Of a stretch of DNA of 64,000 nucleotides, positions 46,065 to 62,181 are shown piece after piece (the first letter of the stretch is position 1; every line of letters begins with the position of its first letter). The notes beneath the pieces are model-generated. The model was not told where the DNA came from. It made no database searches and saw only the letters and a list, made by a program, of their open reading frames with translations. The stretch is from a virus: the IMG/VR virus record IMGVR_UViG_3300043080_000191; one strand, 5' to 3'. Both the position numbers and the translations under genes were made by a program.

Positions 46065-47308
46065 CCGATGAAAGAATAAGCTAATGCGTGTATGCATTAT
46101 TATAAAAATAACTGACTATTTTTTACAGTCGTAGTAGTGAAGTTGGTAAGGCTTCTTGACTGCACACTATTTCCCAGAACGTATCAATAGTTCCAGTACT
46201 CCCGGTCTAATCCAGGATAGTCGATACAACATTTCAAGTTTAAAAGGTTTATTTTTTATTTTCTTAAAGGATAAGAAAGATTTTCTTTTTTATGCGCTCG
46301 TCCTGCATTAATATTTTTTACAGTTGAATAACTTTTATTCCATTTTATAGCAATTTTATTAAGAGATAAATCAGTTTCTAAAATATCTTTTATAATTCCA
46401 TTTACCCAAATTTGATTATTTTCCTTTCTACTTCCTTTATTACAAAGTGGATAAGTATCTTCTTCACTATAAAAATATTTTCCAGTATTTATCATTGATA
46501 AAAAACCAGCGCTTTTAATATTAAAATCTTTTTGTATACTAGAATATTTTTCCCCTGATTTAATTCTATTTTTAATTTCTCTAATCTCTTTTTGAGAAAA
46601 TCTGCTTTTAGCATTTTTCTTTAATGGATAATTAAAATCAGGATTATAAAAATTAGCTCCTGTATTAATATTAACTAAAAAAGTTCTTTTTAATTTTGGA
46701 GAATAAATTTTTTCGATATCATCATATTCTTCATCATTTATTAATCTCCTCTGAATATCTTTAATCTCTTCTCCTGTAAATAATTTAGAACGTTGCAATT
46801 TTTCTAAATAAGTTAATGGAGGTTTTGAACATCCATCTCCACCTTTAGTTAAGTTATATCCATTTTCAGTAGTTAAAGAGTGAAAATGTTCAATAAAATA
46901 AATTTCTCTATCATTTATAAAATCTTTTGATTCTCCATCTGCAATTTCTTCTAAAACTTCATATGAAAAATTATTCATTCCATATTTCCTAATTGCGCAA
47001 TGAAAAGGTAAATAATATCCATTACTTTTAATATTAAAAGCTTCACTTTTATGCCCATTAAATCTTTTTTGCAAATCATTTGTTTGTCCAATATAAATCT
47101 TTCCATTTATCTTATTGGTATATTTATAAATATAATACATATTTCTCCCTCCTCTCTGTGGATATTTGAAAATTTTAATACCTCTTTTAAACTGATTTGT
47201 CACGAGATTTTACCCTCGTTAGCAATTAATCATTGATTTTACCAGAATCAATTTTCAATTAATTACCCCGATGATGAATCGGTTAAGTGTGTAAGCGCCA
47301 TTTACACA
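46065..47308 (-). mobile_element. Group I intron (about 1.24 kb) in dnaE carrying a GIY-YIG homing endonuclease; boundaries +/-20 nt
   Basis: dnaE is interrupted between '...KYGAGPQMGYSF' and 'IGVQTLF...' (E. coli DnaE is continuous here: [21 protein letters not shown]). The 3' segment has P7-type elements UAUCGACUAUCC ... AAAAAUAGUCAG. The exon-1 reading frame hits a stop 3 codons into the insert. Confidence 0.6.
46256..47140 (-). CDS. GIY-YIG homing endonuclease (intron-encoded), with C-terminal NUMOD-like HTH repeats
   Basis: 'MYYIYKYTNKINGKIYIGQTNDLQKRFNGHK...GYNLTKGGDG' after RBS GAGGAGGGAG. The ORF-track start at 47203 is an upstream GTG with no RBS. Confidence 0.8.
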   Translation of the reverse strand: MYYIYKYTNKINGKIYIGQTNDLQKRFNGHKSEAFNIKSNGYYLPFHCAIRKYGMNNFSYEVLEEIADGESKDFINDREIYFIEHFHSLTTENGYNLTKGGDGCSKPPLTYLEKLQRSKLFTGEEIKDIQRRLINDEEYDDIEKIYSPKLKRTFLVNINTGANFYNPDFNYPLKKNAKSRFSQKEIREIKNRIKSGEKYSSIQKDFNIKSAGFLSMINTGKYFYSEEDTYPLCNKGSRKENNQIWVNGIIKDILETDLSLNKIAIKWNKSYSTVKNINAGRAHKKENLSYPLRK

Positions 47309-48501
47309 ACGCTGAATGAATAACCCATCTGTGGACCTGCACCATATTTCCAGATATATTCTCCCAATTTTTTGGAAGTCGCCTTAGATAAAACTTTTGC
47401 TTTCAATTCTGGAATCTTTGACATCTGCTTCTTACCAACAATTTTACGAGCCGCATTTGCTTCACCAAGAGAAAAACCGCAAATATCTTTATCCATTAAC
47501 ATTCTCATTAATTGCTCCTGGCTTGGTGGAACTCCATATGATTGTTTAAAATAAGGTTCAATAGTTTTTTGCTCTTCTTTTGTTAGACCAAAATTATCCA
47601 TTTCTTTATACCATAAGCTAATATCTTTCTTATACTTACAGTATTTTACCATTGGGCGTTCCTCACCTTCTTCTCCAGTGAGTCGCATAAGACCATTCGC
47701 ATCTGCCATTTCAAGCACATTCTGCGGTTTAATCATTTTCGCTGCTTGGGCTCCAACCTGTGAATCAAACTGAAATGTATTAATTACAGATACATTACTA
47801 AGAGCATCCCAAATTTTTTGATCCTGTAGAGGAAGAACATTTGGATGAAAATACTTATCATATACTTCACGTAATTTTAACTCTGGATCAATTAAATTAT
47901 CAGCCTGAAGTAATTGAATTGTTTGAACTAATTTATCCTGAACCTCAGTTACAAGAAAATCATATTTTGTTAAGCCCATATACTCAGCATTATGAAGATC
48001 AAACTGAGTAATAACCTCTCCTTTTGGAGTTTTCATAAAGGCGCTATGCTCAAATGGGTCACCATCAAAAAGAATAACTCCAGAAGCATGAGAAGAACGC
48101 TTATTTACAAGACCTTCAATAGACATAATAATATCCAATAAACCTGGATAATTATTTACTTCACGCACAAATACAGAAATTGGTCTTCTATTTTTTTCTG
48201 GATTACCATTAACAACATCTTTAATTGGCCATAAAAATCCACGCTCTTCTGGAATTAAAGATGACATATACTGAGCTTCATCAATATCAATTCCTTCTGG
48301 ATAATCCTCAGATCTATATCCACGACAAGCGGTTAATACAGCAGATTTAGTTCCTTCTGTTCCAAAAGTTGCAATAAGAGTACAACCAAGTGCTTTCTTT
48401 GCCCATTCCGCAATTCCTTCTTTAAGCATTGCGCTTCTTTCTTCTCTAATTCTTTGAAGAATTAAAGGTCTCTTAGATGGACATATATCAATATCAATAT
48501 C
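47309..48501 (-). CDS. dnaE: DNA polymerase III alpha (DnaE) exon 2 (palm/fingers)
   Basis: Begins 'DIDIDICPSKRP...' (E. coli PDFDVDFCMEKRD) and contains 'RSSHASGVILFDGDPFEHSAFMKTPKGEVITQFDLHNAEYMGLTKYDFL' (DnaE 'HAAGVVI...TQFD...GLLKMDFLGL'). Confidence 0.75.
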
Positions 48502-48838
48502 CTTTTATTGGACTATCTCTTTCACAATAATCTACTGAGAGTTATTACTTCGATTATTGCTAGAATGCGCTACGGGACAGTGCATCTCCATCCCTCTCAA
48601 AACTTTTATAAAAAGTTTTATTTAGTCTCTACACTCCAATAAATTTTATTAAAGCACGGTATTGCAAAGTCCAACCATATTTCAGGCCACTCGTTCTCTT
48701 AGTCAGCTGATTCGTGTTTATATTTTTTTTGATAAACCTTATTTTGCTGATACCGTTAGCATAATTTTTTTTTAATTACACACCCTTTAGCAAGGTTCAC
48801 ATTCTTTATTTACAACTCGGCAATATCAATATTAGACT
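48502..48838 (-). mobile_element. ORF-less group I intron (about 337 nt) in dnaE at the PDIDID motif
   Basis: Exon 1 ends ...ERVELG(GGU). Intron nt 18-24 GCCGAGU pair with the exon end ACUCGGU, giving P1 with a U-G wobble at the 5' splice site. R-like GUGUAGAGACUAAAU and S-like AAGAGAUAGUCC (P7 GACUA/UAGUC) are present. The intron ends ...AAUAAAAG (omega-G) before GAUAUUGAU (DIDIDI). The spliced product 'ERVELGDIDIDICPSKR' matches E. coli 'ERVSMPDFDVDFCMEKR'. Confidence 0.7.
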
Positions 48839-51735: not shown

Positions 51736-52902
51736 TTATTCTTTTATTCTTGAGTTATAATAATTTTTTTCATTATCCTTTGTTAATAAAAATCTTGTTG
51801 TTTCAAGTTTTAAATCTTCTATTGTATAATCTGCATCATATGGAATACGAATAATAGGAATATTATTATTAAAGCAATATTGATTTTTTATCAAATCATT
51901 TTTTCTAACTCTTTCAAAATGTTCTTTTGTATCCCATCCAGTTCCTTTATAGTAAAAATGTTGAGAACCATCATATTCTATTATATACATTTCATCTACA
52001 TAAAAATCATATTCCATTGGGCGCCCATGAGTGGGATATAGTTCATTTAGCCTTAAATCTTTATATTGTCTAATAAAAGGTAAATTTAATTGTTCTAATA
52101 AATTGGCAATATTTTCTTCTTCATACGAAATTCTTCTTCCACAACCACAACTCTTTATACTTCCATTTACTAATCTTGAACCAACGACTATATGAGACTG
52201 TGTTCCGCATTCACATTTGCATTTATATAGAAATCCTCCACTACTATATTTATTGTCTAACTTAGAAATAACTGTTAATTTTCCAAACTTATCTCCTGGA
52301 CTAATTTGCAGATATTTTCTACATCCACAACTTTTTACTTTATTTGTAGTTAAATCTGATGTTTTAATGTCTTTTTCATTTCCACATTTACATTTACAAT
52401 GCCAATATCTATGTCCATCTTTTTTAAAAGCTAAATTCAATACAGTTAAATCATTGTATATTTTTCCAGTTAAATCCTCTAATTCTTGATTACATTGATG
52501 AGATAAACACCCACAAGATTTAACTTCTCCTGATGTTAAATTTCCATTTGAAACCCAAGTCTCATTCCCACAATCACATTTACATTTTAAATAAGTTTTT
52601 CCATTTTTCCGCTTTCTTTCATTTAAAACAATTAATTTATGGAAACGCATTCCTGTATAATCTTTTTGCATTTGTTTATGTTGACATTCTTCACATTGCT
52701 GAGACCATGACCCAGCTCTTAATTTACCAATATTTCCACATTCGCATTGTCCTATCCACATTGGTCTTCTTGGATCTGTTGTTCTATATAAAATAGTCCA
52801 TTTGTTAATTTTTTGATTAGTAAAATCTTGTGCTTTTCCTACATCTCTTTTTCTCCAAAGAATATATGCTTCTTCTATCGTTTTTACATAAGTATTTTTC
52901 AT
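51736..52902 (-). CDS. Putative free-standing site-specific/homing endonuclease: four tandem Cys4 zinc-ribbon repeats plus a C-terminal DUF559/Vsr-like PD-(D/E)xK nuclease domain
   Basis: Repeats 'G..F..LTV...(10-15)...CKC[DKE]CG.E....S..L.SG..KSCGC' occur four times (the first is degenerate). C-terminus 'LPFIRQYKDL...EYDFYVDEMYIIEYDGSQHF...IIRIPY' matches the DUF559 pattern (F-x-R-Q ... D-F-Y-V ... E-x-D-G-x-x-H). Confidence 0.55.
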   Translation of the reverse strand: MKNTYVKTIEEAYILWRKRDVGKAQDFTNQKINKWTILYRTTDPRRPMWIGQCECGNIGKLRAGSWSQQCEECQHKQMQKDYTGMRFHKLIVLNERKRKNGKTYLKCKCDCGNETWVSNGNLTSGEVKSCGCLSHQCNQELEDLTGKIYNDLTVLNLAFKKDGHRYWHCKCKCGNEKDIKTSDLTTNKVKSCGCRKYLQISPGDKFGKLTVISKLDNKYSSGGFLYKCKCECGTQSHIVVGSRLVNGSIKSCGCGRRISYEEENIANLLEQLNLPFIRQYKDLRLNELYPTHGRPMEYDFYVDEMYIIEYDGSQHFYYKGTGWDTKEHFERVRKNDLIKNQYCFNNNIPIIRIPYDADYTIEDLKLETTRFLLTKDNEKNYYNSRIKE

Positions 52903-55323: not shown

Positions 55324-57087
55324 CTAAAAATAATATTTACTTTGCCCATCAATTTCATACTCTTCAATTAGAATTTGCGGAGTTGTTTTTCCTCCCCAAT
55401 AATTCTGTTCGCATTTACCAACTAAAGAAATAGTAGTACAACCATTTCCTTCTGGACAGAGTTTTTGAAATTCTTCTTCTGAAGATTTAAAACTGATTAA
55501 TTCAACCCCATTAGATAAAACAATTTTTAATGTAGGGTTTTTATCTTTAGACATCAAAATAATATTCTGAGAAGTAATATTTACTCCTGTTATAGCAATT
55601 AAAGGCTCTTCAATACCTTGACCCCAAACTGATTTTAAATTAGCTATATCTATAATATCTTTACCATTAAAATTTGATCCATGATAAATCATATCTACAT
55701 TATAGCTTGGAGAAAATTCAAATTCATCTAAATCAAAATCAGAACGATAAACTAATTTATCAAAATTTTGATTAGTAACTCCAACTCCAAAAGCAGAAGC
55801 ATGACCTTCTGCGTACATAACCAAACCAGTTTGATTTAGATATTCTTTAAAATTCTTAAAAGCAGATTTATCATATCCTCTTCCAGAACCTTCCCAAGTT
55901 ATATCTCCATTTTCATTAACAACTTTATTTAATAATAGTACTGGTCTTTGGTATTTAGCCATAAGTTGATTCGCTATTAAACCTGTAAGGTTTTTATCAA
56001 CATGATATTCAGGTTTTATTTTTATAATCAAAAACTTATGATTTAAAAGATTATCTTCTTCAATAATACTTTCGAGAGCGGTTAAACTATTATCTCTTGC
56101 TTTTTGTTGACGATTTTTAATATTCACACAATTTCGACAAGCTTGTTCAACCCTAGTTTCCATTTGCCCTTTACATCCACGCTTTGTAGATGGAATCTGT
56201 TCATATGCTTTAAAATCAAGCATCGATTCAAATAAAGTCATTTTTTCAGCAGAATTACCCATCCTAATAGTTCCATTTACTTGTGGAGCAATGTAGAAAC
56301 TAATTGCGAATGGATCCAAACCGCCATGCTTGTTAATTGAAAAATTCTGAACTTGAATCATCTGTTTAAAAAAAGGATTTCTTATACTTGCAAGACCTTT
56401 ATCAATTAATCGTTTAGTTTCATAGTCTCTTAAATCCATCATATCTGCTATCATTCCAAGAGCAGCCAAATCAAGAAAATTATCAGCTTCTTTAGTTCCT
56501 AATATTTCATCAATATAAGAACAAAATTTGTAAACCATTCCTGCGCCGGATAATGATTTTGTTGGATAATCACAAAGCTGATTATTAACAATACAAGCAT
56601 TTTCTGAAATTTTTTCAGCTTCATGATGATCAATAACTAAAACGTCAATTCCTTTAGCTCTTAAAAGTTTATGTTCTTCATAATCGTTTGAAGAAGAGTC
56701 TGGCGCTATTACTAATTTAACTCCTTCTGGAATTGTATTAGGAATAATACCATGCTGTTTTCCAGTATGAATACGATATAAAATATTATTTTGCGCATAC
56801 CCTGGAAATAAACAATTTAAATAATTAATTAGTATTGCCGATGAAGTAAAACCATCACAATCGCTATCCACTTGAAAGAATATTAAATCTTTTTGTGAAA
56901 TGTGTTTAACTAACATTTGCGCGCCTTGTTGAATATTCATAATCAATTTTGGATCGCAAATATCTTCATCTGTTGTATGTAAATAATGTTCGATATTTTG
57001 AGGATCAATGCCCCTATTTGAAAACACCGTCTCAACCACTGTCATATTTTTATCTGGGAGAACTGGTGATATTAGTTGATAATCCAA
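55324..57087 (-). CDS. recJ: RecJ-like ssDNA exonuclease (DHH family)
   Basis: 'FFQVDSDCDGFTS' (D-x-D-x-D-G), 'VLVIDHHEAE' (DHH), 'AEGHASAFGVG' (GGH..AAG-like). 587 aa. Confidence 0.75.
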   Translation of the reverse strand: MDYQLISPVLPDKNMTVVETVFSNRGIDPQNIEHYLHTTDEDICDPKLIMNIQQGAQMLVKHISQKDLIFFQVDSDCDGFTSSAILINYLNCLFPGYAQNNILYRIHTGKQHGIIPNTIPEGVKLVIAPDSSSNDYEEHKLLRAKGIDVLVIDHHEAEKISENACIVNNQLCDYPTKSLSGAGMVYKFCSYIDEILGTKEADNFLDLAALGMIADMMDLRDYETKRLIDKGLASIRNPFFKQMIQVQNFSINKHGGLDPFAISFYIAPQVNGTIRMGNSAEKMTLFESMLDFKAYEQIPSTKRGCKGQMETRVEQACRNCVNIKNRQQKARDNSLTALESIIEEDNLLNHKFLIIKIKPEYHVDKNLTGLIANQLMAKYQRPVLLLNKVVNENGDITWEGSGRGYDKSAFKNFKEYLNQTGLVMYAEGHASAFGVGVTNQNFDKLVYRSDFDLDEFEFSPSYNVDMIYHGSNFNGKDIIDIANLKSVWGQGIEEPLIAITGVNITSQNIILMSKDKNPTLKIVLSNGVELISFKSSEEEFQKLCPEGNGCTTISLVGKCEQNYWGGKTTPQILIEEYEIDGQSKYYF

Positions 57088-57148
57088 ATGAAATCAACCT
57101 CCTTTCATATCGAACACCTCTTTAAATCTTTAATAAAACCACTCCTTT

Positions 57149-57343
57149 TTAATCTTGTTTTACTTCATAATATTTACAAAATATTGAAGAAAAAATATTG
57201 CTTTCATTAATATGCTTATCTTTTAATTTACAATTTGTAAAAGTATAATAAGTCATTCCAATATCTCTCAAATATTTATTATAATATTTACAAAATTTAC
57301 ATCTTTTATGCTTTTTTCTGTATTGATAAATATTAGTATCCAT
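57149..57343 (-). CDS. Small Cys-rich hypothetical protein (64 aa)
   Basis: 'CKFCKYY...NCKLK...FCKYY'. Confidence 0.35.
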   Translation of the reverse strand: MDTNIYQYRKKHKRCKFCKYYNKYLRDIGMTYYTFTNCKLKDKHINESNIFSSIFCKYYEVKQD

Positions 57344-57351
57344 ATATCTCC

Positions 57352-57654
57352 TTAAAAATAAGTATAAACTTTATATGGGGGAAGTTTTGTACAAGGTTTA
57401 ATAATACAATGAATTAATTCTTCTGGCATATTAAGTTCAATAGCTGATTGATTATAAGCATATCCCCTTGCACTATTTACTGCTTTAATAACCCTCCAAA
57501 TATCACCATTTTCAAATTCCGTATAAGTGTCGTATAATGAAATTTTAGTACGAATTACTTTAATTCTATTTTCATTATATCGTCTTTCAATAAAATGAAG
57601 ATAGTCTATTGCGGCATCTCGATCTTTATCCCACCAAATTCCACCTCTTGTCAT
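57352..57654 (-). CDS. Hypothetical protein (100 aa)
   Basis: ORF in an operon. Confidence 0.4.
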   Translation of the reverse strand: MTRGGIWWDKDRDAAIDYLHFIERRYNENRIKVIRTKISLYDTYTEFENGDIWRVIKAVNSARGYAYNQSAIELNMPEELIHCIIKPCTKLPPYKVYTYF

Positions 57655-58010
57655 AATACAATCCTTTCTTTAAATAGTTGTAAAAATATTTCTTTTCCAC
57701 AATCAACTGGAGAGTCTTTATATCCAGTAATCATATTTTTATCAAAAATAAAAGAAATCGTTACATAATTTTTATATTTATTTCTTAATCTTATCAAATT
57801 ACTTTTTAAATGCTGAAACTCTTTATCTCCAATCTCTTGAAACTGCCTATCAAAAGCAACTATAATTTCAGTTGCGCCAGCCCCAATTAATAATTCAATT
57901 TGATAAGAAGAAACACTTGAACCACAACATGCTACAGATATATCATTTTCTAAACCAAAATAACTTTTATATAGAAGTGTACTTTTTTCCATATGAATCT
58001 TGAATTTCTT
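57651..58010 (-). CDS. dnaG: DNA primase (DnaG-like) exon 2: C-terminal half of the TOPRIM domain
   Basis: 'YFGLENDISVACCGSSVSSYQIELLIGAGATEIIVAFDRQF' matches TOPRIM 'YGINYAVASLGTS...VVLCYDGDRAG'. The frame is open upstream of the annotated TTG into the intron. The exact 3' splice site is ambiguous (58010 or 58016). Confidence 0.6.
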   Translation of the reverse strand, partial: KKFKIHMEKSTLLYKSYFGLENDISVACCGSSVSSYQIELLIGAGATEIIVAFDRQFQEIGDKEFQHLKSNLIRLRNKYKNYVTISFIFDKNMITGYKDSPVDCGKEIFLQLFKERIVL

Positions 58011-59026
58011 CAAGTACTGACTATCTCTTCCAATTATAAATATATAATTGCTGCCGTTTTGAGAATTGTATCAATAAATTCTCTACTTCCTTTACCGGAA
58101 TAGTCGATACAGGCTTATTTGTTTTTCCAATAAACTCTTTTACTTATAGAACGAGATTTTGTTCTTAATGGATATATATATCCTTTTAATCTATAGGCTT
58201 TAGTTTTTCCACGATTAATATCCATTATAGTTGAAGATGAACAATTAAATTGCTTAGAAATTTCAATAAAAGTTTTATCATTCTTTAAAATTTCCTCATG
58301 GATTTTTTTACATTCTTCTTGAGAAAAACGTAATCCTTTTGTACCTTTCATATTTGAAGATCGAATAGGATAAATTAAATTATCTCTTTTCCTTCGTTTA
58401 CCAGTATTTATATTATAAATATGTGTCATTGAAATTCCTGTTTTATTCATTATATCATTGTAAGAATAACTTTCATCTTTCAACATTTCAATAACTATAT
58501 CTATTTTATCTTCAGTAAATACTGGCCTAATTGGATTTGCGCCGCCAGTTGTTTGGTTATATCCATCATAATAAGTGTTATAATATGCAATCCAATATTT
58601 TTCTTTATCATTTAATTCTTCTTTTAAGAGATTTCTTTCTAAAATAATTAATTCGTATTCATCTTCTCCATATTTTCTAATTCCTCTGCTTAAAGGATAA
58701 TTATATTCTTTAAGTGAAATATCGAAAGGGTCATATTGTATATGTCTTTTATGCCTTTCTTTTAAATTTTCTGTTTGACCAACATATACAATTTTATTAT
58801 TTGATTTTTTTCTATAGGCATAAATAACATTGTCAATCATTTATAGTAAGACCTCCTTTTTTCATCTTTACTATGAAAAGAGATCCTTATTGTTTAAACA
58901 AATTTTCCCACGGGACCACCTTATTTTTCAATTTAGGCTCCCCCGTTAGCATATATACCATTTTTTTGGCGTATATATACCCCGCTGATAAACGGAAAAG
59001 CAGACTAGGGCGAAACACTAACTTTT
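58011..59026 (-). mobile_element. Group I intron (about 1.0 kb) in the primase gene carrying a GIY-YIG homing endonuclease
   Basis: Primase exon 1 ends '...AIIFEG' (TOPRIM 'EG') and then hits a stop. A possible P1 pairs exon AGGGU with intron GCCCU. 3' elements UAUCGACUAUUCC ... AGAGAUAGUCAG are near-identical to the dnaE HEG-containing intron. Confidence 0.55.
58115..58840 (-). CDS. GIY-YIG homing endonuclease (intron-encoded), paralog of the dnaE intron HEG
   Basis: 'NVIYAYRKKSNNKIVYVGQTENLKERHKRH...GYNQTTGGAN'. RBS AAGGAGG. C-terminal HTH-like repeats. Confidence 0.8.
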   Translation of the reverse strand: MIDNVIYAYRKKSNNKIVYVGQTENLKERHKRHIQYDPFDISLKEYNYPLSRGIRKYGEDEYELIILERNLLKEELNDKEKYWIAYYNTYYDGYNQTTGGANPIRPVFTEDKIDIVIEMLKDESYSYNDIMNKTGISMTHIYNINTGKRRKRDNLIYPIRSSNMKGTKGLRFSQEECKKIHEEILKNDKTFIEISKQFNCSSSTIMDINRGKTKAYRLKGYIYPLRTKSRSISKRVYWKNK

Positions 59027-59794
59027 ACCCTCAAAAATAATAGCTTTTTTAATTTGATTGATTTGATTTTTACTAAAATTAAAATTATACAGATTCATTC
59101 CAAGAGGATGATTATACATAATTCGATTAACTTTTAACGGGCGATATTTACCAAAAATATCAGCTTCTTCCTTACAAAGTGTTCGACCGCGCAATCCTAC
59201 AAATCTTCCATCTTTATCAAAATGAGGAATTGTTATTTGATCGCCTCCTGGATAAAAACCAATTAAAGCTTGGTTAATGGCTTCCTGAGAAATTCCTTCT
59301 TTTAACCAAGGCTCGATTTTTAAAGAATAATTAAATCTATCTAAGATTTCACTGTTGTATTCTTTTAGAATAACATTATCTTTCTTTTTTAAATCAATAT
59401 CTTGAATTCTTTTATAATTATCTAAATAGCTCCAATCCGCAAGTCCATTGTCATTCATTGAATCAACAACTTCGCCCATGATTCCGAATTTACCGGCAAT
59501 CCATCTGACTGCATCGTTTAAATCAAATTCAATTTCATGCTGAATCTTTGCTATTTTCCTAGTTAATTCAAATATATCAAAATAACTATCACAACCAGTA
59601 TAACATCGAAATAATCCACTATTTTCATAATAATACAATTTTCGACTTCCTTCTCCTGGTTGATTATGACAAATTGTAGATGAAAGGATCCCGAATGATG
59701 TATATTCAGGATCCCCTCCCCACTCTTGTAATAAATCAAAAATATTCTCAATAACTAAACTATCTCGAATTTCTGCTTTATCATAATTTATCAT
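59027..59794 (-). CDS. dnaG: DNA primase (DnaG-like) exon 1: CHC2 zinc finger and the start of TOPRIM
   Basis: 'CHNQPGEGSRKLYYYENSGLFRCYTGCDSYFDIFEL' is a CHC2 Zn finger. It ends '...KAIIFEG' followed by an in-frame stop inside the intron. Confidence 0.65.
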
Positions 59795-59822
59795 TTATTC
59801 ATCCTATCTTTCTTAATAAGAT

Positions 59823-60086
59823 TTATCCGATGATAACTTTAACACATTTCTCTTTTAGACCAAACTGGTCATTTACAATCCAGCAGAGATAAGCCTGTGC
59901 ATCCATTCTTTCTTCAGCACCTTTTCTTCCTTTAAGATAATCTCTTGCGATTGCTTTAGGCATCTTATACTCACAAGCGCCAACCTTTTCACAAGTGTCT
60001 ACTGGAGTAACTACCTGTTTGAAACCTACACCTTTAGTTTTCTTATTTACTTTGTTTGTTTTCTTTTTAGTTGTTTTCTCTGCCAT
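59823..60086 (-). CDS. Hypothetical protein (87 aa) with Lys-rich N-terminus
   Basis: ORF between the primase and dnaB-like genes. 'KKKTNKVNKKTKG'. Confidence 0.4.
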   Translation of the reverse strand: MAEKTTKKKTNKVNKKTKGVGFKQVVTPVDTCEKVGACEYKMPKAIARDYLKGRKGAEERMDAQAYLCWIVNDQFGLKEKCVKVIIG

Positions 60087-60133
60087 AATAATTATCTCCT
60101 CTTAATCTTTTTATTTAAAATTATTTAAGAAAT

Positions 60134-61663
60134 CTAAAATGCAGATTCCTCTTCAACAATAATTTTCACATTATCTATACTTACCATTTCATAAGCATAT
60201 GTTGTACAAAACATTGGAATTATTCTGCAACAGCCTAAATCAGCTTTGCACCATAAAATAACTCCTTTATATCTTCCTCGTCTGTTCTTATAAATAGACA
60301 TTTTAATTGTTGGTCTTTCAAATAAGTTTGTTGACAATATTGGATCAAGCGCTTCAAGATCTTCATCTTTAACATTTAAAAGAATTGAACCATAATCAAC
60401 TTTATCTGCGATAGCTTTTGCGCCTCGAAGTAAATTCTGATCTGGAGTCTTAGCATCTTGATAGTCGCCATTTAACTGCGTTGCTGACATAATAAAAATG
60501 CCATATTTATTACATAAATCTTTCAATCGAGTTGATAACATAAACAAAATATTATCTTCTCTTAATTTGATTCCACCACTTCTTCTTGTGATTTCTTCAA
60601 GAATCTTCAAACTAGTATGAATATAATCGTGAAAAACATATTTAACATCATGGTCACGCAAATTTTTCTTAATTTTATCTTCAACGTCTTTTAAAGAAAA
60701 ATCTGGAAGTTCTTCAATATATAAAGGACTTTCACTTAAAATTTGTGCGGCTTTCATTACGCGATCTTCTTCATCGCCTTCATATTCTCCATTAAGGATA
60801 TGTTCTTCATTAACTGACGATAAAAATGCCAACATCATTGTTTGAATTTCTTCAAGTTCCTGCTCAGTTGTAATAAATAAAACTGGCTCGCAAGTTCCAT
60901 TTTTAATCCAACCAAAATTATCATCATAAATCTGATTACATGCAATATAACATGCATCCGCAATCATTGATCTAGTCTTACCAACTCCAGTAGCCGCAGA
61001 TCTAAGATAAAACTTTTTTAATCTTGCGCCACGAGTAACTGTATTAATAAGAGGTCCATATAATGGAACTCCTACTTCTGGATGCTCTTTAAATTTTGCA
61101 ATTAAATCAAAAATTCCTTCTCCTGCTTGCGCAGCTTCTCCATCAACATCATCTACATATTTTAATCTAATTTCAGCAATTTTATTATCAACTTTATCAG
61201 CTATTTCTTCCAATGTAGAATTATCTAATTGATCCTCTTGGAGTTGCTTCTTTTTTACATCCAAAATATTATCTGGATCATATATATCAGAAACATCAAC
61301 GCCAAAATTATCATATGCTCTTAACAGAGTCATTTTCTTTAAACGATTATAATAATAATCAAATGTTGCTTGAGTCGCTGAATCAGCTACTTTTAATAGC
61401 CATTCTTCTCCTTTTTGAGTCTGATATAAAGCTAAACTCTTTGGTCTTGTTGATAAAAAATCTGAAATTGTTTCAAGATGGATTTCATTTGCGCCTAATT
61501 CATGAATCTTATAAATTGCCCCAAAAACTAATCTATGAAATTCATCTGGAAAATCTTCATCCACTATTGTGTATTTATCTGTAAAATCTAAAAGTTGAGG
61601 TCGATTGAAAACACAACCAATAACTTGCATAATTGATGTAGAATCTACATACTTTGATGCCAT
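60134..61663 (-). CDS. dnaB: DnaB-like replicative DNA helicase
   Basis: N-terminal 'STSIMQVIGCVFNRPQLL' (DnaB N-domain pattern). Walker A 'LRSAATGVGKTRSMIA'. 509 aa. Confidence 0.65.
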   Translation of the reverse strand: MASKYVDSTSIMQVIGCVFNRPQLLDFTDKYTIVDEDFPDEFHRLVFGAIYKIHELGANEIHLETISDFLSTRPKSLALYQTQKGEEWLLKVADSATQATFDYYYNRLKKMTLLRAYDNFGVDVSDIYDPDNILDVKKKQLQEDQLDNSTLEEIADKVDNKIAEIRLKYVDDVDGEAAQAGEGIFDLIAKFKEHPEVGVPLYGPLINTVTRGARLKKFYLRSAATGVGKTRSMIADACYIACNQIYDDNFGWIKNGTCEPVLFITTEQELEEIQTMMLAFLSSVNEEHILNGEYEGDEEDRVMKAAQILSESPLYIEELPDFSLKDVEDKIKKNLRDHDVKYVFHDYIHTSLKILEEITRRSGGIKLREDNILFMLSTRLKDLCNKYGIFIMSATQLNGDYQDAKTPDQNLLRGAKAIADKVDYGSILLNVKDEDLEALDPILSTNLFERPTIKMSIYKNRRGRYKGVILWCKADLGCCRIIPMFCTTYAYEMVSIDNVKIIVEEESAF

Positions 61664-62181
61664 TAAACTTCTTCCTCCTCATCTAAAAAAGAAAATAACT
61701 TTCTTTTTTTTACATTCTTTTGCGGTGAGGGAATAGAAATTACTTTTTCGTGAGGTACATAATCCTCTATCTTTATCTTATCATTCTTTTGTTGAGCTTC
61801 CCAAATAGAATAATAATAATTGAAAGCATCCTTATAAACATAAGGAACAATACCTATACCGCCATTTGATTTTTCAATAGAATTGCCTTTTACCTCATGG
61901 AAATAAATTAAAGCTTTTTTAATACCTGAATATGAATAATGATAAGTTTCAATAAAAGTATTAATCTGTTTTCTTATCCTAGGACTTATATAGTCTTCTT
62001 TAAATAACTGCATTATATAATTCTCTAATTCAAGCTTATCAGCTTCTTCTTTCTTTAATTTTTCTCCTTCAGTTTCAGCACATTCTTTATGTGCATATCG
62101 CATATTTGATACTTTTATAGTTGGATATTTATCCCTATCAAACTTCTTTTTACAATATACACAGGTAACGATATGAGCCAT
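61663..62181 (-). CDS. Hypothetical protein (172 aa) with N-terminal Zn-ribbon-like CxxC...HxxC
   Basis: 'CVYCKKKF...YAHKEC'. First gene after the strong promoter. Confidence 0.45.
   Translation of the reverse strand: MAHIVTCVYCKKKFDRDKYPTIKVSNMRYAHKECAETEGEKLKKEEADKLELENYIMQLFKEDYISPRIRKQINTFIETYHYSYSGIKKALIYFHEVKGNSIEKSNGGIGIVPYVYKDAFNYYYSIWEAQQKNDKIKIEDYVPHEKVISIPSPQKNVKKRKLFSFLDEEEEV

Follow-up and report, generated by a model that had tools for sequence, protein, structure and literature searches.

The closest described systems are the intron in the thymidylate synthase gene (td) of phage T4, which belongs to subgroup IA2, and the introns in bnrdE and bnrdF of Bacillus phage SPbeta, which self-splice. 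In td and bnrdE, and also in the Twort intron, helix P2 stands before P3. Yutin et al. (2021, PMC7886860) further reported endonuclease-bearing group I introns, which they had traced by way of endonuclease domains, in the primase genes of crAss-like phages of the Delta group. Here we analysed a stretch of 64,000 nucleotides from a virus (IMG/VR record IMGVR_UViG_3300043080_000191; the whole stretch is referred to here as the window) in which a gene for a DnaG-type primase is interrupted by an insert that carries an endonuclease gene of its own. Our data indicate that the insert is very probably a mobile group I intron of IA type (it has the P7.1 and P7.2 insertions; we give it no formal subgroup) in the primase gene of an SPbeta-like phage. 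The gene and its insert have the following parts.

59027..59794, minus strand: primase exon 1, 256 codons, with the CHC2 zinc finger and the RNA-polymerase core, ending ...AIIFEG (GAG GGT).
57990..59026, minus strand: probable group I intron in the primase gene, 1,037 nt, starting AAAAGUUAG and ending ...AUUCAUAUG, terminal G at 57990.
58115..58840, minus strand: gene in the loop of P6 for a GIY-YIG homing endonuclease of 241 aa; AAGGAGG at 58858-58852, 11 nt upstream of the ATG.
57651..57989, minus strand: primase exon 2, EKSTLLYKSYFGLENDISVACCGSS...AFDRQF..., the remaining TOPRIM domain and the C-terminus, stop codon included.

The open reading frame (ORF) 59794..59018 (minus strand, 258 aa) contains the CHC2 finger ICHNQPGEGS...RCYTGC and has the C-terminal end ...KKAIIFEG-KS-stop, which bears out the statement in a preliminary description of this DNA that the primase stops after '...AIIFEG'. 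The TOPRIM continuation was found where it had been placed, namely in the downstream ORF 58013..57651 (minus strand, 120 aa from a TTG), which contains ...YKSYFGLENDISVACCGSS...IIVAFDRQF... and so carries YFGLENDISVACCGSS...IIVAFDRQF.

The boundaries of the insert are exact. We compared the window with L001, an 83.5-kb phage contig that encodes an uninterrupted primase (P0001) and is approximately 96% identical to the window over 19 kb. The blastn comparison breaks at exactly three inserts, one in the primase gene and two in dnaE, and both genes are uninterrupted in L001. The two dnaE introns are thus confirmed against an intron-less relative, and the preliminary description was right to count the primase intron as the third of the window. 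With exon 1 taken to end at the T of GAG GGT (59027), we tried several possible starts for exon 2, and only GAA AAA AGT at 57989 yields a protein that fits the family. Excision of 59026..57990 restores the frame and gives a primase of 368 aa; P0001, its best database match, also has 368 aa and differs from it at 3 residues. FE[G/S]EKS is read across the junction in all 120 best primase homologues. The spliced coding sequence (CDS) is gaplessly colinear with the L001 gene, from which it differs at 31 of 1107 nt, and only three of these 31 exon differences, none of them among the seven in exon 2, change an amino acid. This product is lost when the boundaries are shifted, so the intron comprises 59026..57990, and since the uninterrupted L001 allele fixes it, the 3' boundary is unambiguous. 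Exon 2 starts at 57989 with EKSTLLYKS, ten residues ahead of YFGLEND. Of the boundaries given earlier (58011-59026), the 5' end at 59026 is exact, but the 3' end is 57990 and not 58011, which lies 21 nt upstream of it, inside P9.

Splice sites after TTG (58011) or after ...GUCAG (58017) were rejected because each would add 7-9 residues that occur in no homologue. The ligated exon junction is expected to read ...TTTTTGAGGGT followed by GAAAAAAGTACAC..., and the 30-mer across the spliced junction is AAAGCTATTATTTTTGAGGGTGAAAAAAGTACACTTC. The unspliced 5' junction reads ...TTTGAGGGTAAAAGTTAGTG; the intron-less site of the L001 type reads ...TTTTTGAAGGAGAAAAAAGT..., or in its longer form ...ATTATTTTTGAAGGAGAAAAAAGTACA....

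We found that the spliced primase matches phrog_47 'DNA primase' (2e-34) and NCBIfam PRK08624 (8e-72) and, over residues 185-303, TIGR01391 dnaG (9.4e-8, far under the curated cut-off of 283.6 bits); Pfam gave only Toprim, at E = 0.13. Solved structures searched with the single primase sequence returned only a chance reductase match. A profile of 18 primase family members (alignment A4) searched against the same kind of structures matches DnaG catalytic cores (5GUJ at 4.9e-6, also 1EQN, 1DD9 and 4E2K), with 'aivfEGeksv' aligned on DnaG 'avlfEGfadv' and 'llvvEGymdv'. Since the A4 profile thereby aligns E255-G256 with the TOPRIM Glu-Gly of DnaG, the intron stands directly after the TOPRIM E-G, and the split at this motif that was noticed from the sequence holds against solved DnaG structures. 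The TOPRIM DxD motif of DnaG was not found in the window primase, where F-D-R-Q occupies the aligned position in A4 (spliced residues 302-305, in exon 2), with D303 invariant and Q305 nearly invariant. Since F-D-R-Q stands where DnaG has D-x-D, the metal-binding site of YorJ-like primases may differ from that of canonical DnaG.

The RNA helices proposed for the primase intron are listed below, with window positions on the minus strand, read 5' to 3'.

59007..59031, minus strand: P1 and P10 guide; exon AGGGU (59031-59027) with GCCCU (59011-59007), U·G at the splice site.
59015-59012, minus strand: guide UUUC of P10, directly 5' of the P1 guide; pairs with exon-2 GAAA (57989-57986).
58999..59003, minus strand: P3 5' strand, CUGCU with GGCAG at 58055-58051; pseudoknot with P7.
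58949..58995, minus strand: hairpins P3.1 and P3.2, CCG/CGG and GUAUAUAUAC/GUAUAUAUGC; then UAA and P4.
58911..58945, minus strand: P4 enclosing P5, CGGGG/UCCCG and GCCU/AGGU.
58112..58124, minus strand: P6/P6a 3' strand, AAACAAAU..CC with GG...AUUUGUUU at 58910-58896; overlaps the last codons of the endonuclease.
58019..58105, minus strand: 3' half of the catalytic core, in the order P7 GACUAU, P7.1, AGUA, P7.2, AAAAC, P3 GGCAG, P8, GGAAGAG, P7 AUAGUC.
Within 58019..58105, minus strand: P7.1 UCC/GGA; P7.2 GAGAAUU/AAUUCUC, loop UAUUGAUAC; P8 AAUUAUA/UAUAAUU.
57999..58014, minus strand: P9 hairpin, CUUGAA-GAAA-UUCAAG; contains the TTG used as start in the ORF list.

Beside the restored frame, the insert thus has a P1 with U·G, a terminal G with P10, and the conserved core of a group I intron (the P3-P7 pseudoknot, P4-P6, P8 and the R and S elements); together with the covariation described below, these features uphold the original assignment to group I. 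P6/P6a closes the loop that holds the endonuclease gene, the P6a 3' strand being formed by the last codons of that gene, and P9 is followed by 9 nt that end in the terminal G. Two further hairpins, P7.1 and P7.2, come after the 5' strand of P7 and before the 3' strand of P3, a td-like IA trait. No P2 was found between P1 and P3, where the nine introns of alignment A3 (see below) have only 2-3 nt. Since P3.1 is named among the optional group I pairings (PMC3873408), we did not treat P3.1 and P3.2 as a new kind of element. We also rejected an alternative P3, UGCU/GGCA, in which the bases that directly precede J3/4 would pair, as they do in td: it is impossible in L008, a same-site relative, whereas each of the nine introns takes part in the covariation of the upstream pairing.

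Rfam left the question unsettled, and the structure was therefore worked out by comparison. Relatives came from an endonuclease search (L007 and L008, with introns in primase genes; L012-L020, in topoisomerase genes), from dnaE intron 2, from Enterococcus phage EF1, and from a scan of IMG/VR with a signature pattern. Alignment A3 holds nine introns written as N-padded strings of equal length, made of helix strands and junctions, and MAFFT returned it without gaps; dnaE intron 1 is outside the formal pair count because MAFFT shifted its register in the padded alignment. Across the 69 proposed pairs of A3, 99.6% of 534 cells are standard pairs, compared to 36-43% when the partners are slid by 1-3 columns, and 49 of the pairs show changes on both sides. 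Compensatory changes occur in four of the five pairs of P1, with U·G in all nine introns, in three of the four pairs of P10 (e.g., window GAAA/UUUC versus L007 GAGA/UCUC), in 5/6 pairs of P3, 4/5 of P3.1, 8/11 of P3.2 and 6/7 of P9, and in two pairs of P4; all cells (100%) are paired in P3 and P4. P7.1 has compensatory changes in 4/5 pairs. The variants of P3 among these introns are CUGCU/GGCAG, UCUACU/GGUAGA, CACACU/AGUGUG and AACGCU/AGCGUU, and P1 occurs as CGGAU/GUCCG versus CAGAU/GUCUG.

A covariance model of the 3' half (R1), built from alignment A1 and run on 84 sources, gave 103 matches with 100 distinct sequences (A5). In A5, 96.4% of cells are paired and the covariation is 0.706, compared to 0.18 for shuffled and 0.07-0.13 for slid columns, with compensatory changes in all seven pairs of P7.2 and all six of P9. 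Taking A3 and A5 together, P3, P4, P8 and P9 covary. P7, GACUAU/AUAGUC, is invariant in the 100 distinct sequences and is the same as in td. Furthermore, an unconstrained minimum-energy fold in which the ORF was replaced by a tetraloop recovered P1, P3.1, P3.2, P4, P5, P6, P7, P7.1, P7.2, P8 and P9. R1 scores 114.8 bits on the primase intron, by construction, as the sequence is in the seed of the model; it also matches SPbeta bnrdE (30 bits, 4.3e-5) and bnrdF (23.4 bits, 0.0015), neither of which is in the seed. The family-signature pattern has one match in the window and none in 100 shuffles.

Several points weigh against a group I intron. P7 never varies and, being invariant, gives no information on covariation. 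The register of A3 was set by hand on the proposed helices and that of A5 by the fit to the model, and because of this the percentage of paired cells leans towards the structure; the real evidence is the compensatory changes at positions anchored by conserved flanks, together with the slid controls. P6 is outside the pair count, and the evidence for it is the fold and the comparison with L008, which has AUUUAC/GUAAAU plus AACGG/CCGUU at this position. The order P1-P3-hairpin-hairpin-P4 is unlike that of td and SPbeta bnrdE. The endonuclease reaches 48.9 bits with TIGR01453 'group I intron endonuclease' (E = 8.3e-13), below the curated cut-off of 56.05. Lastly, Rfam at gathering score matched no family in the whole window, and at E <= 10 it gave no RF00028 on 57800-59200; a search of the dnaE region gave nothing. 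RF00028 appeared only in a search of 241 nt, with 23.3 bits against a gathering score of 50 (E = 3.7e-4), in a match that aligns P8, the S element and P9. The search for group I introns that the preliminary description had suggested as a check therefore returned this weak match and none at gathering score. As a control we took T4 td with its ORF, a proven ribozyme, which at 42.5 bits is likewise under the RF00028 cut-off; since td with its ORF fails too, the gathering score is insensitive for ORF-bearing IA introns.

The weak RF00028 score, as well as the unusual peripheral architecture without P2, could also come from a decayed group I intron that no longer splices, in which case the primase would be a pseudogene and the phage would use another primase. 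We consider this improbable, if slightly less so than the other alternatives. All helices of the core are intact, P1 and P10 among them, as are the U·G pair and the terminal G; the endonuclease ORF is of full length. The low share of nonsynonymous changes among the exon differences from L001, with none in exon 2, indicates purifying selection on both exons, and exon 2 is conserved in three other intron-bearing lineages (L007, L008 and EF1) at 31-49% protein identity.

The sole ORF of the intron encodes a protein of the GIY-YIG family. Its match to Pfam PF01541 GIY-YIG (residues 5-94) reaches 28 bits against a cut-off of 22.6 (E 2.7e-6), and phrog_7168 'homing endonuclease' matches the 241-aa ORF at 3.9e-33; with the TIGR01453 match, these results agree with the GIY-YIG homing endonuclease gene named in the preliminary description. 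The motifs VIY...VYVG and candidates for the Arg, Glu and Asn residues can be read from the sequence. The protein is homologous to the endonuclease of dnaE intron 2 (31% identity, E = 2e-22), in line with the relatedness proposed there. A hairpin at 58859-58881 (minus strand), UCUUUUCAU-AGUAAAG-AUGAAAA, ends directly at AAGGAGG, and L007 has the same stem sequence; an Rfam chance match, 'UPD-PKc', is this hairpin. RNA structure gates the translation of I-TevI, the endonuclease of td, and by analogy the hairpin could gate translation of the primase-intron endonuclease.

The distribution of the intron is patchy. It is absent from L001, despite the identity of approximately 96%, and all 80 best-scoring of 430 IMG/VR primase relatives are intron-less. 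Introns at the same site, between FE[G/A] and EKS, are found in the metagenomic phages L007 and L008 and in Enterococcus phage EF1, whose primases are 49, 31 and 37% identical to that of the window, respectively. EF1 (L034, GenBank MF001358.1, 1198-2159) is a cultured phage of Enterococcus faecalis, and its same-site primase intron encodes a GIY-YIG endonuclease of 223 aa; MF001358.1 annotates the region as three 'hypothetical protein' CDSs with the intron not marked. In the VRE9 phages, which are related to EF1, the primase gene is uninterrupted. At each of the three junctions, L001 and the window differ by a cluster of changes that are without exception synonymous.

Primase junction: L001 GAA GGA; window GAG GGT.
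dnaE intron 1 junction: L001 GAA CGT GTG GAA CTT; window GAG AGA GTC GAA CTC.
dnaE intron 2 junction: L001 AGT GTA ATC CAT; window AGC GTC ATA CAC.

GAGGGT precedes the site in three of the four intron-bearing primase alleles versus one of the 80 intron-less ones. As sequence patterns, the junction differences and the GAGGGT bias fit co-conversion in the course of homing, selection that favours pairing in P1, or a combination of the two.

The preliminary description had pointed to near-identical 3' core elements in the primase intron and the endonuclease-bearing dnaE intron, and had taken them as a sign of intron spread within the same genome. The elements are present, UAUCGACUAUUCC at 58108..58096 and AGAGAUAGUCAG at 58028..58017 in the primase intron, UAUCGACUAUCC and AAAAAUAGUCAG in dnaE intron 2; they are family-wide, however. 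Indeed, the signature of these R and S elements was found in at least 120 stretches of IMG/VR. The endonucleases cluster according to insertion site rather than genome, with mutual identities of 39-71% for primase-site and 55-86% for topoisomerase-site enzymes. The window primase endonuclease is 71% identical to that of L007, 45% to that of EF1 and 41% to that of L008, compared to only 31% for its genome-mate in dnaE, and these values do not support the proposed recent spread within the genome. Since the endonucleases group by insertion site and the window pair is only 31% identical, the primase intron and dnaE intron 2 are, on sequence comparison, distant members of one widespread family with no recent copying in the window genome.

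The signature is common in viral contigs (IMG/VR L035-L114), and R1 has four matches within 14 kb in L061 and three each in L050 and L049; L008 has one at 5148-5278. Given several copies within a few kb at some loci, intron density in these phages is high. Further introns of this RNA family, with related GIY-YIG endonucleases, lie in L012, L013, L014, L015, L019 and L020 (approximately 2225-3330 in each), where they interrupt a gene for a type IIA topoisomerase inside its TOPRIM D-x-D-x-D motif, between ...CVDAD and SDGYHIG.... Since the topoisomerase TOPRIM is split as well, the intron family repeatedly targets TOPRIM catalytic motifs.

From these comparisons we infer how the intron might splice and move. 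The primase gene would be transcribed as a single pre-mRNA, in which the guide UUUC-GCCCU would hold the last bases of exon 1 (AGGGU) in P1, where U·G marks the splice site, and the first bases of exon 2 (GAAA) in P10. A free guanosine bound at P7 would attack the 5' splice site, and the freed 3'-OH of exon 1 would then attack after the terminal G at 57990. The exons would be joined as GAG GGU to GAA AAA, giving ...IIFEG-EKSTLL... and the full primase of 368 aa, and unspliced RNA would give a product of 258 aa without most of the TOPRIM domain. The endonuclease gene would use a ribosome-binding site of its own within the P6 loop, and the enzyme would cut intron-less primase alleles of co-infecting relatives, and repair from the intron-bearing copy would install the intron together with some flanking exon sequence.

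A somewhat less probable alternative than a decayed intron, and one we think unlikely, is a genuinely split primase, with a free-standing endonuclease gene inside and two halves that are translated separately and assemble without RNA splicing. Arrangements in which a homing endonuclease separates the halves of a gene are known as 'fractured genes' (PMC2677866). Exon 1 has its stop two codons past the junction, and the last three bases of the insert (57992-57990) are AUG, in frame with exon 2. This AUG also occurs in L007, but it is not conserved, since L008 ends in ...ACUG and EF1 in ...UACG, and no Shine-Dalgarno sequence stands ahead of it. Moreover, approximately 310 nt of non-coding insert around the endonuclease form helices with compensatory changes and an invariant P7, which would be needless in a plain gene insertion, and the break falls between the TOPRIM Glu-Gly and the next residue. 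Neither half, taken separately, matches a Pfam family, intein domains included, at E <= 0.01. The halves of a split intein, as in a fractured gene, were not found either: exon 1 stops two codons past E-G, and only eight in-frame codons (from the TTG at 58013) precede exon 2. Group II introns, inteins and insertion sequences or IStrons also interrupt phage replication genes, but that the insert is one of these is the least credible explanation by far, as it has no reverse transcriptase, transposase or Hint domain and no ORF other than the GIY-YIG endonuclease, is out of frame as a protein insertion given the stop just past the junction, and forms helices that match the group I core.

The two introns in dnaE, the gene for PolIII alpha, lie at the following positions.

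48502-48838, minus strand: dnaE intron 1, 337 nt, no ORF; junction between ERVELG and DIDIDI.
46095-47308, minus strand: dnaE intron 2, 1,214 nt, with a 294-aa GIY-YIG endonuclease (47140..46256); junction between YSFSV and IHALAYS.

With both introns removed, dnaE is colinear with the uninterrupted L001 gene, from which it differs at 71 of 3557 nt. R1 scores 74.7 bits on dnaE intron 2, which is in its seed, and does not detect dnaE intron 1. The first bases of dnaE intron 1 (48822-48838, minus strand), AGUCUAAUAUUGAUAUU, resemble the start of the following exon (48487-48501, minus strand), GAUAUUGAUAUUGAU, and because of this resemblance the blastn alignment extends into the intron by 16 nt. 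This stretch could also form a P10 of 9 bp with three wobble pairs.

All genes in the primase part of the window are on the minus strand. A gene for a DnaB-type helicase lies upstream of the primase exon 1 ORF, and downstream follow the ORFs 58840..58115 and 58013..57651 and a RecJ-like gene. The gene order AAA_24, YorH, DnaB, primase, RecJ, ..., PolIII alpha is that of the replication module yorG-yorL of SPbeta, and the window primase is a homologue of SPbeta YorJ, of the DnaG type. Its closest cultured relatives (approximately 35% identity) are the primases of SPbeta-like phages of Bacillus, Enterococcus and Clostridioides. Elsewhere in the window, an ORF of 388 aa at 51736-52902 (minus strand), between the genes for an SF1 helicase and a DUF5131 protein, has a weak match to DUF2726 (E = 8.5e-4). 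L001 has a different, shorter segment in this region, 676 nt versus 1,677 nt in the window, and the ORF is a variable gene that is possibly mobile or defence-related.

Our literature searches turned up no described primase intron in SPbeta-like phages and only the mention in crAss-like phages. Among GenBank phages, megablast of 57000-61700 gave no match, nor did blastn of the intron 3' core, in a collection that includes EF1. The primase intron opens no new question, as knowledge of GIY-YIG group I introns in genes of phage DNA metabolism goes back to T4 td, and for crAss-like phages there is the mention of introns in primase genes; it is well supported, useful for annotation and unsurprising to specialists. 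It is another case of homing endonucleases aimed at the most conserved codons of essential replication enzymes. Annotations of these phages, EF1 for example, list the genes for primase, PolIII alpha and topoisomerase as fragments or hypothetical proteins, and RF00028 at its cut-off does not flag the cause, whereas the signature and R1 find more than 100 further copies. L001 and the window furthermore form a natural intron-less and intron-bearing pair for measuring homing and co-conversion. It is conceivable, but for now doubtful, that these introns make up a large unannotated IA-type subfamily, common in large Firmicutes phages, in which a pair of hairpins behind the 5' strand of P3 takes the place of P2 and the loop of P7.2 is a conserved UAUURRYAC, and with GIY-YIG lineages specialised by target site on catalytic motifs (primase TOPRIM E-G, topoisomerase TOPRIM DxD and PolIII alpha). 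Such a subfamily, if undescribed, would represent a new variant in structure and would systematically lead to replication genes being mis-annotated as 'split'.

Compared with known systems, the primase intron shares with T4 td and I-TevI a GIY-YIG endonuclease gene in the P6 loop and a place in a phage DNA-metabolism gene, and its 3' core follows the order of td (GCCU..CGACUAU, P7.1, AGUA, P7.2, a GAAAC-like joiner, the P3 3' strand, P8, GAGAUAUAGUC and P9). It differs in its layout around P3: in td, P2 separates P1 from P3 and no element stands between P3 and J3/4, whereas the primase intron lacks P2 and has two hairpins that follow the 5' strand of P3. The P7.2 loop is AAGU in td versus UAUUGAUAC here, td has P9.1 and P9.2 extensions in contrast to a single short P9, and the host gene encodes thymidylate synthase and not primase. 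The phages that carry the bnrdE and bnrdF introns and the primase intron share a replication module (yorF, G, H, I (DnaB), J (primase homologue), K (RecJ) and L (PolIII alpha)), and the P7-P9 cores of both SPbeta introns, whose genes are annotated in the GenBank record as intron-interrupted, are detected by R1. Unlike the primase intron, however, the SPbeta introns have the canonical P1-P2-P3-P4 order and lie in ribonucleotide reductase genes, and bnrdF carries an HNH and not a GIY-YIG endonuclease. The crAss-like introns (PMC7886860) likewise combine a phage primase gene with an endonuclease-bearing group I intron, in an unrelated phage lineage. The nearest counterparts are the same-site introns of EF1, L007 and L008, none of which is annotated or described as an intron; they have the identical insertion point, the same helix plan and homologous endonucleases, and the core of the L007 intron is approximately 74-78% identical to that of the window.

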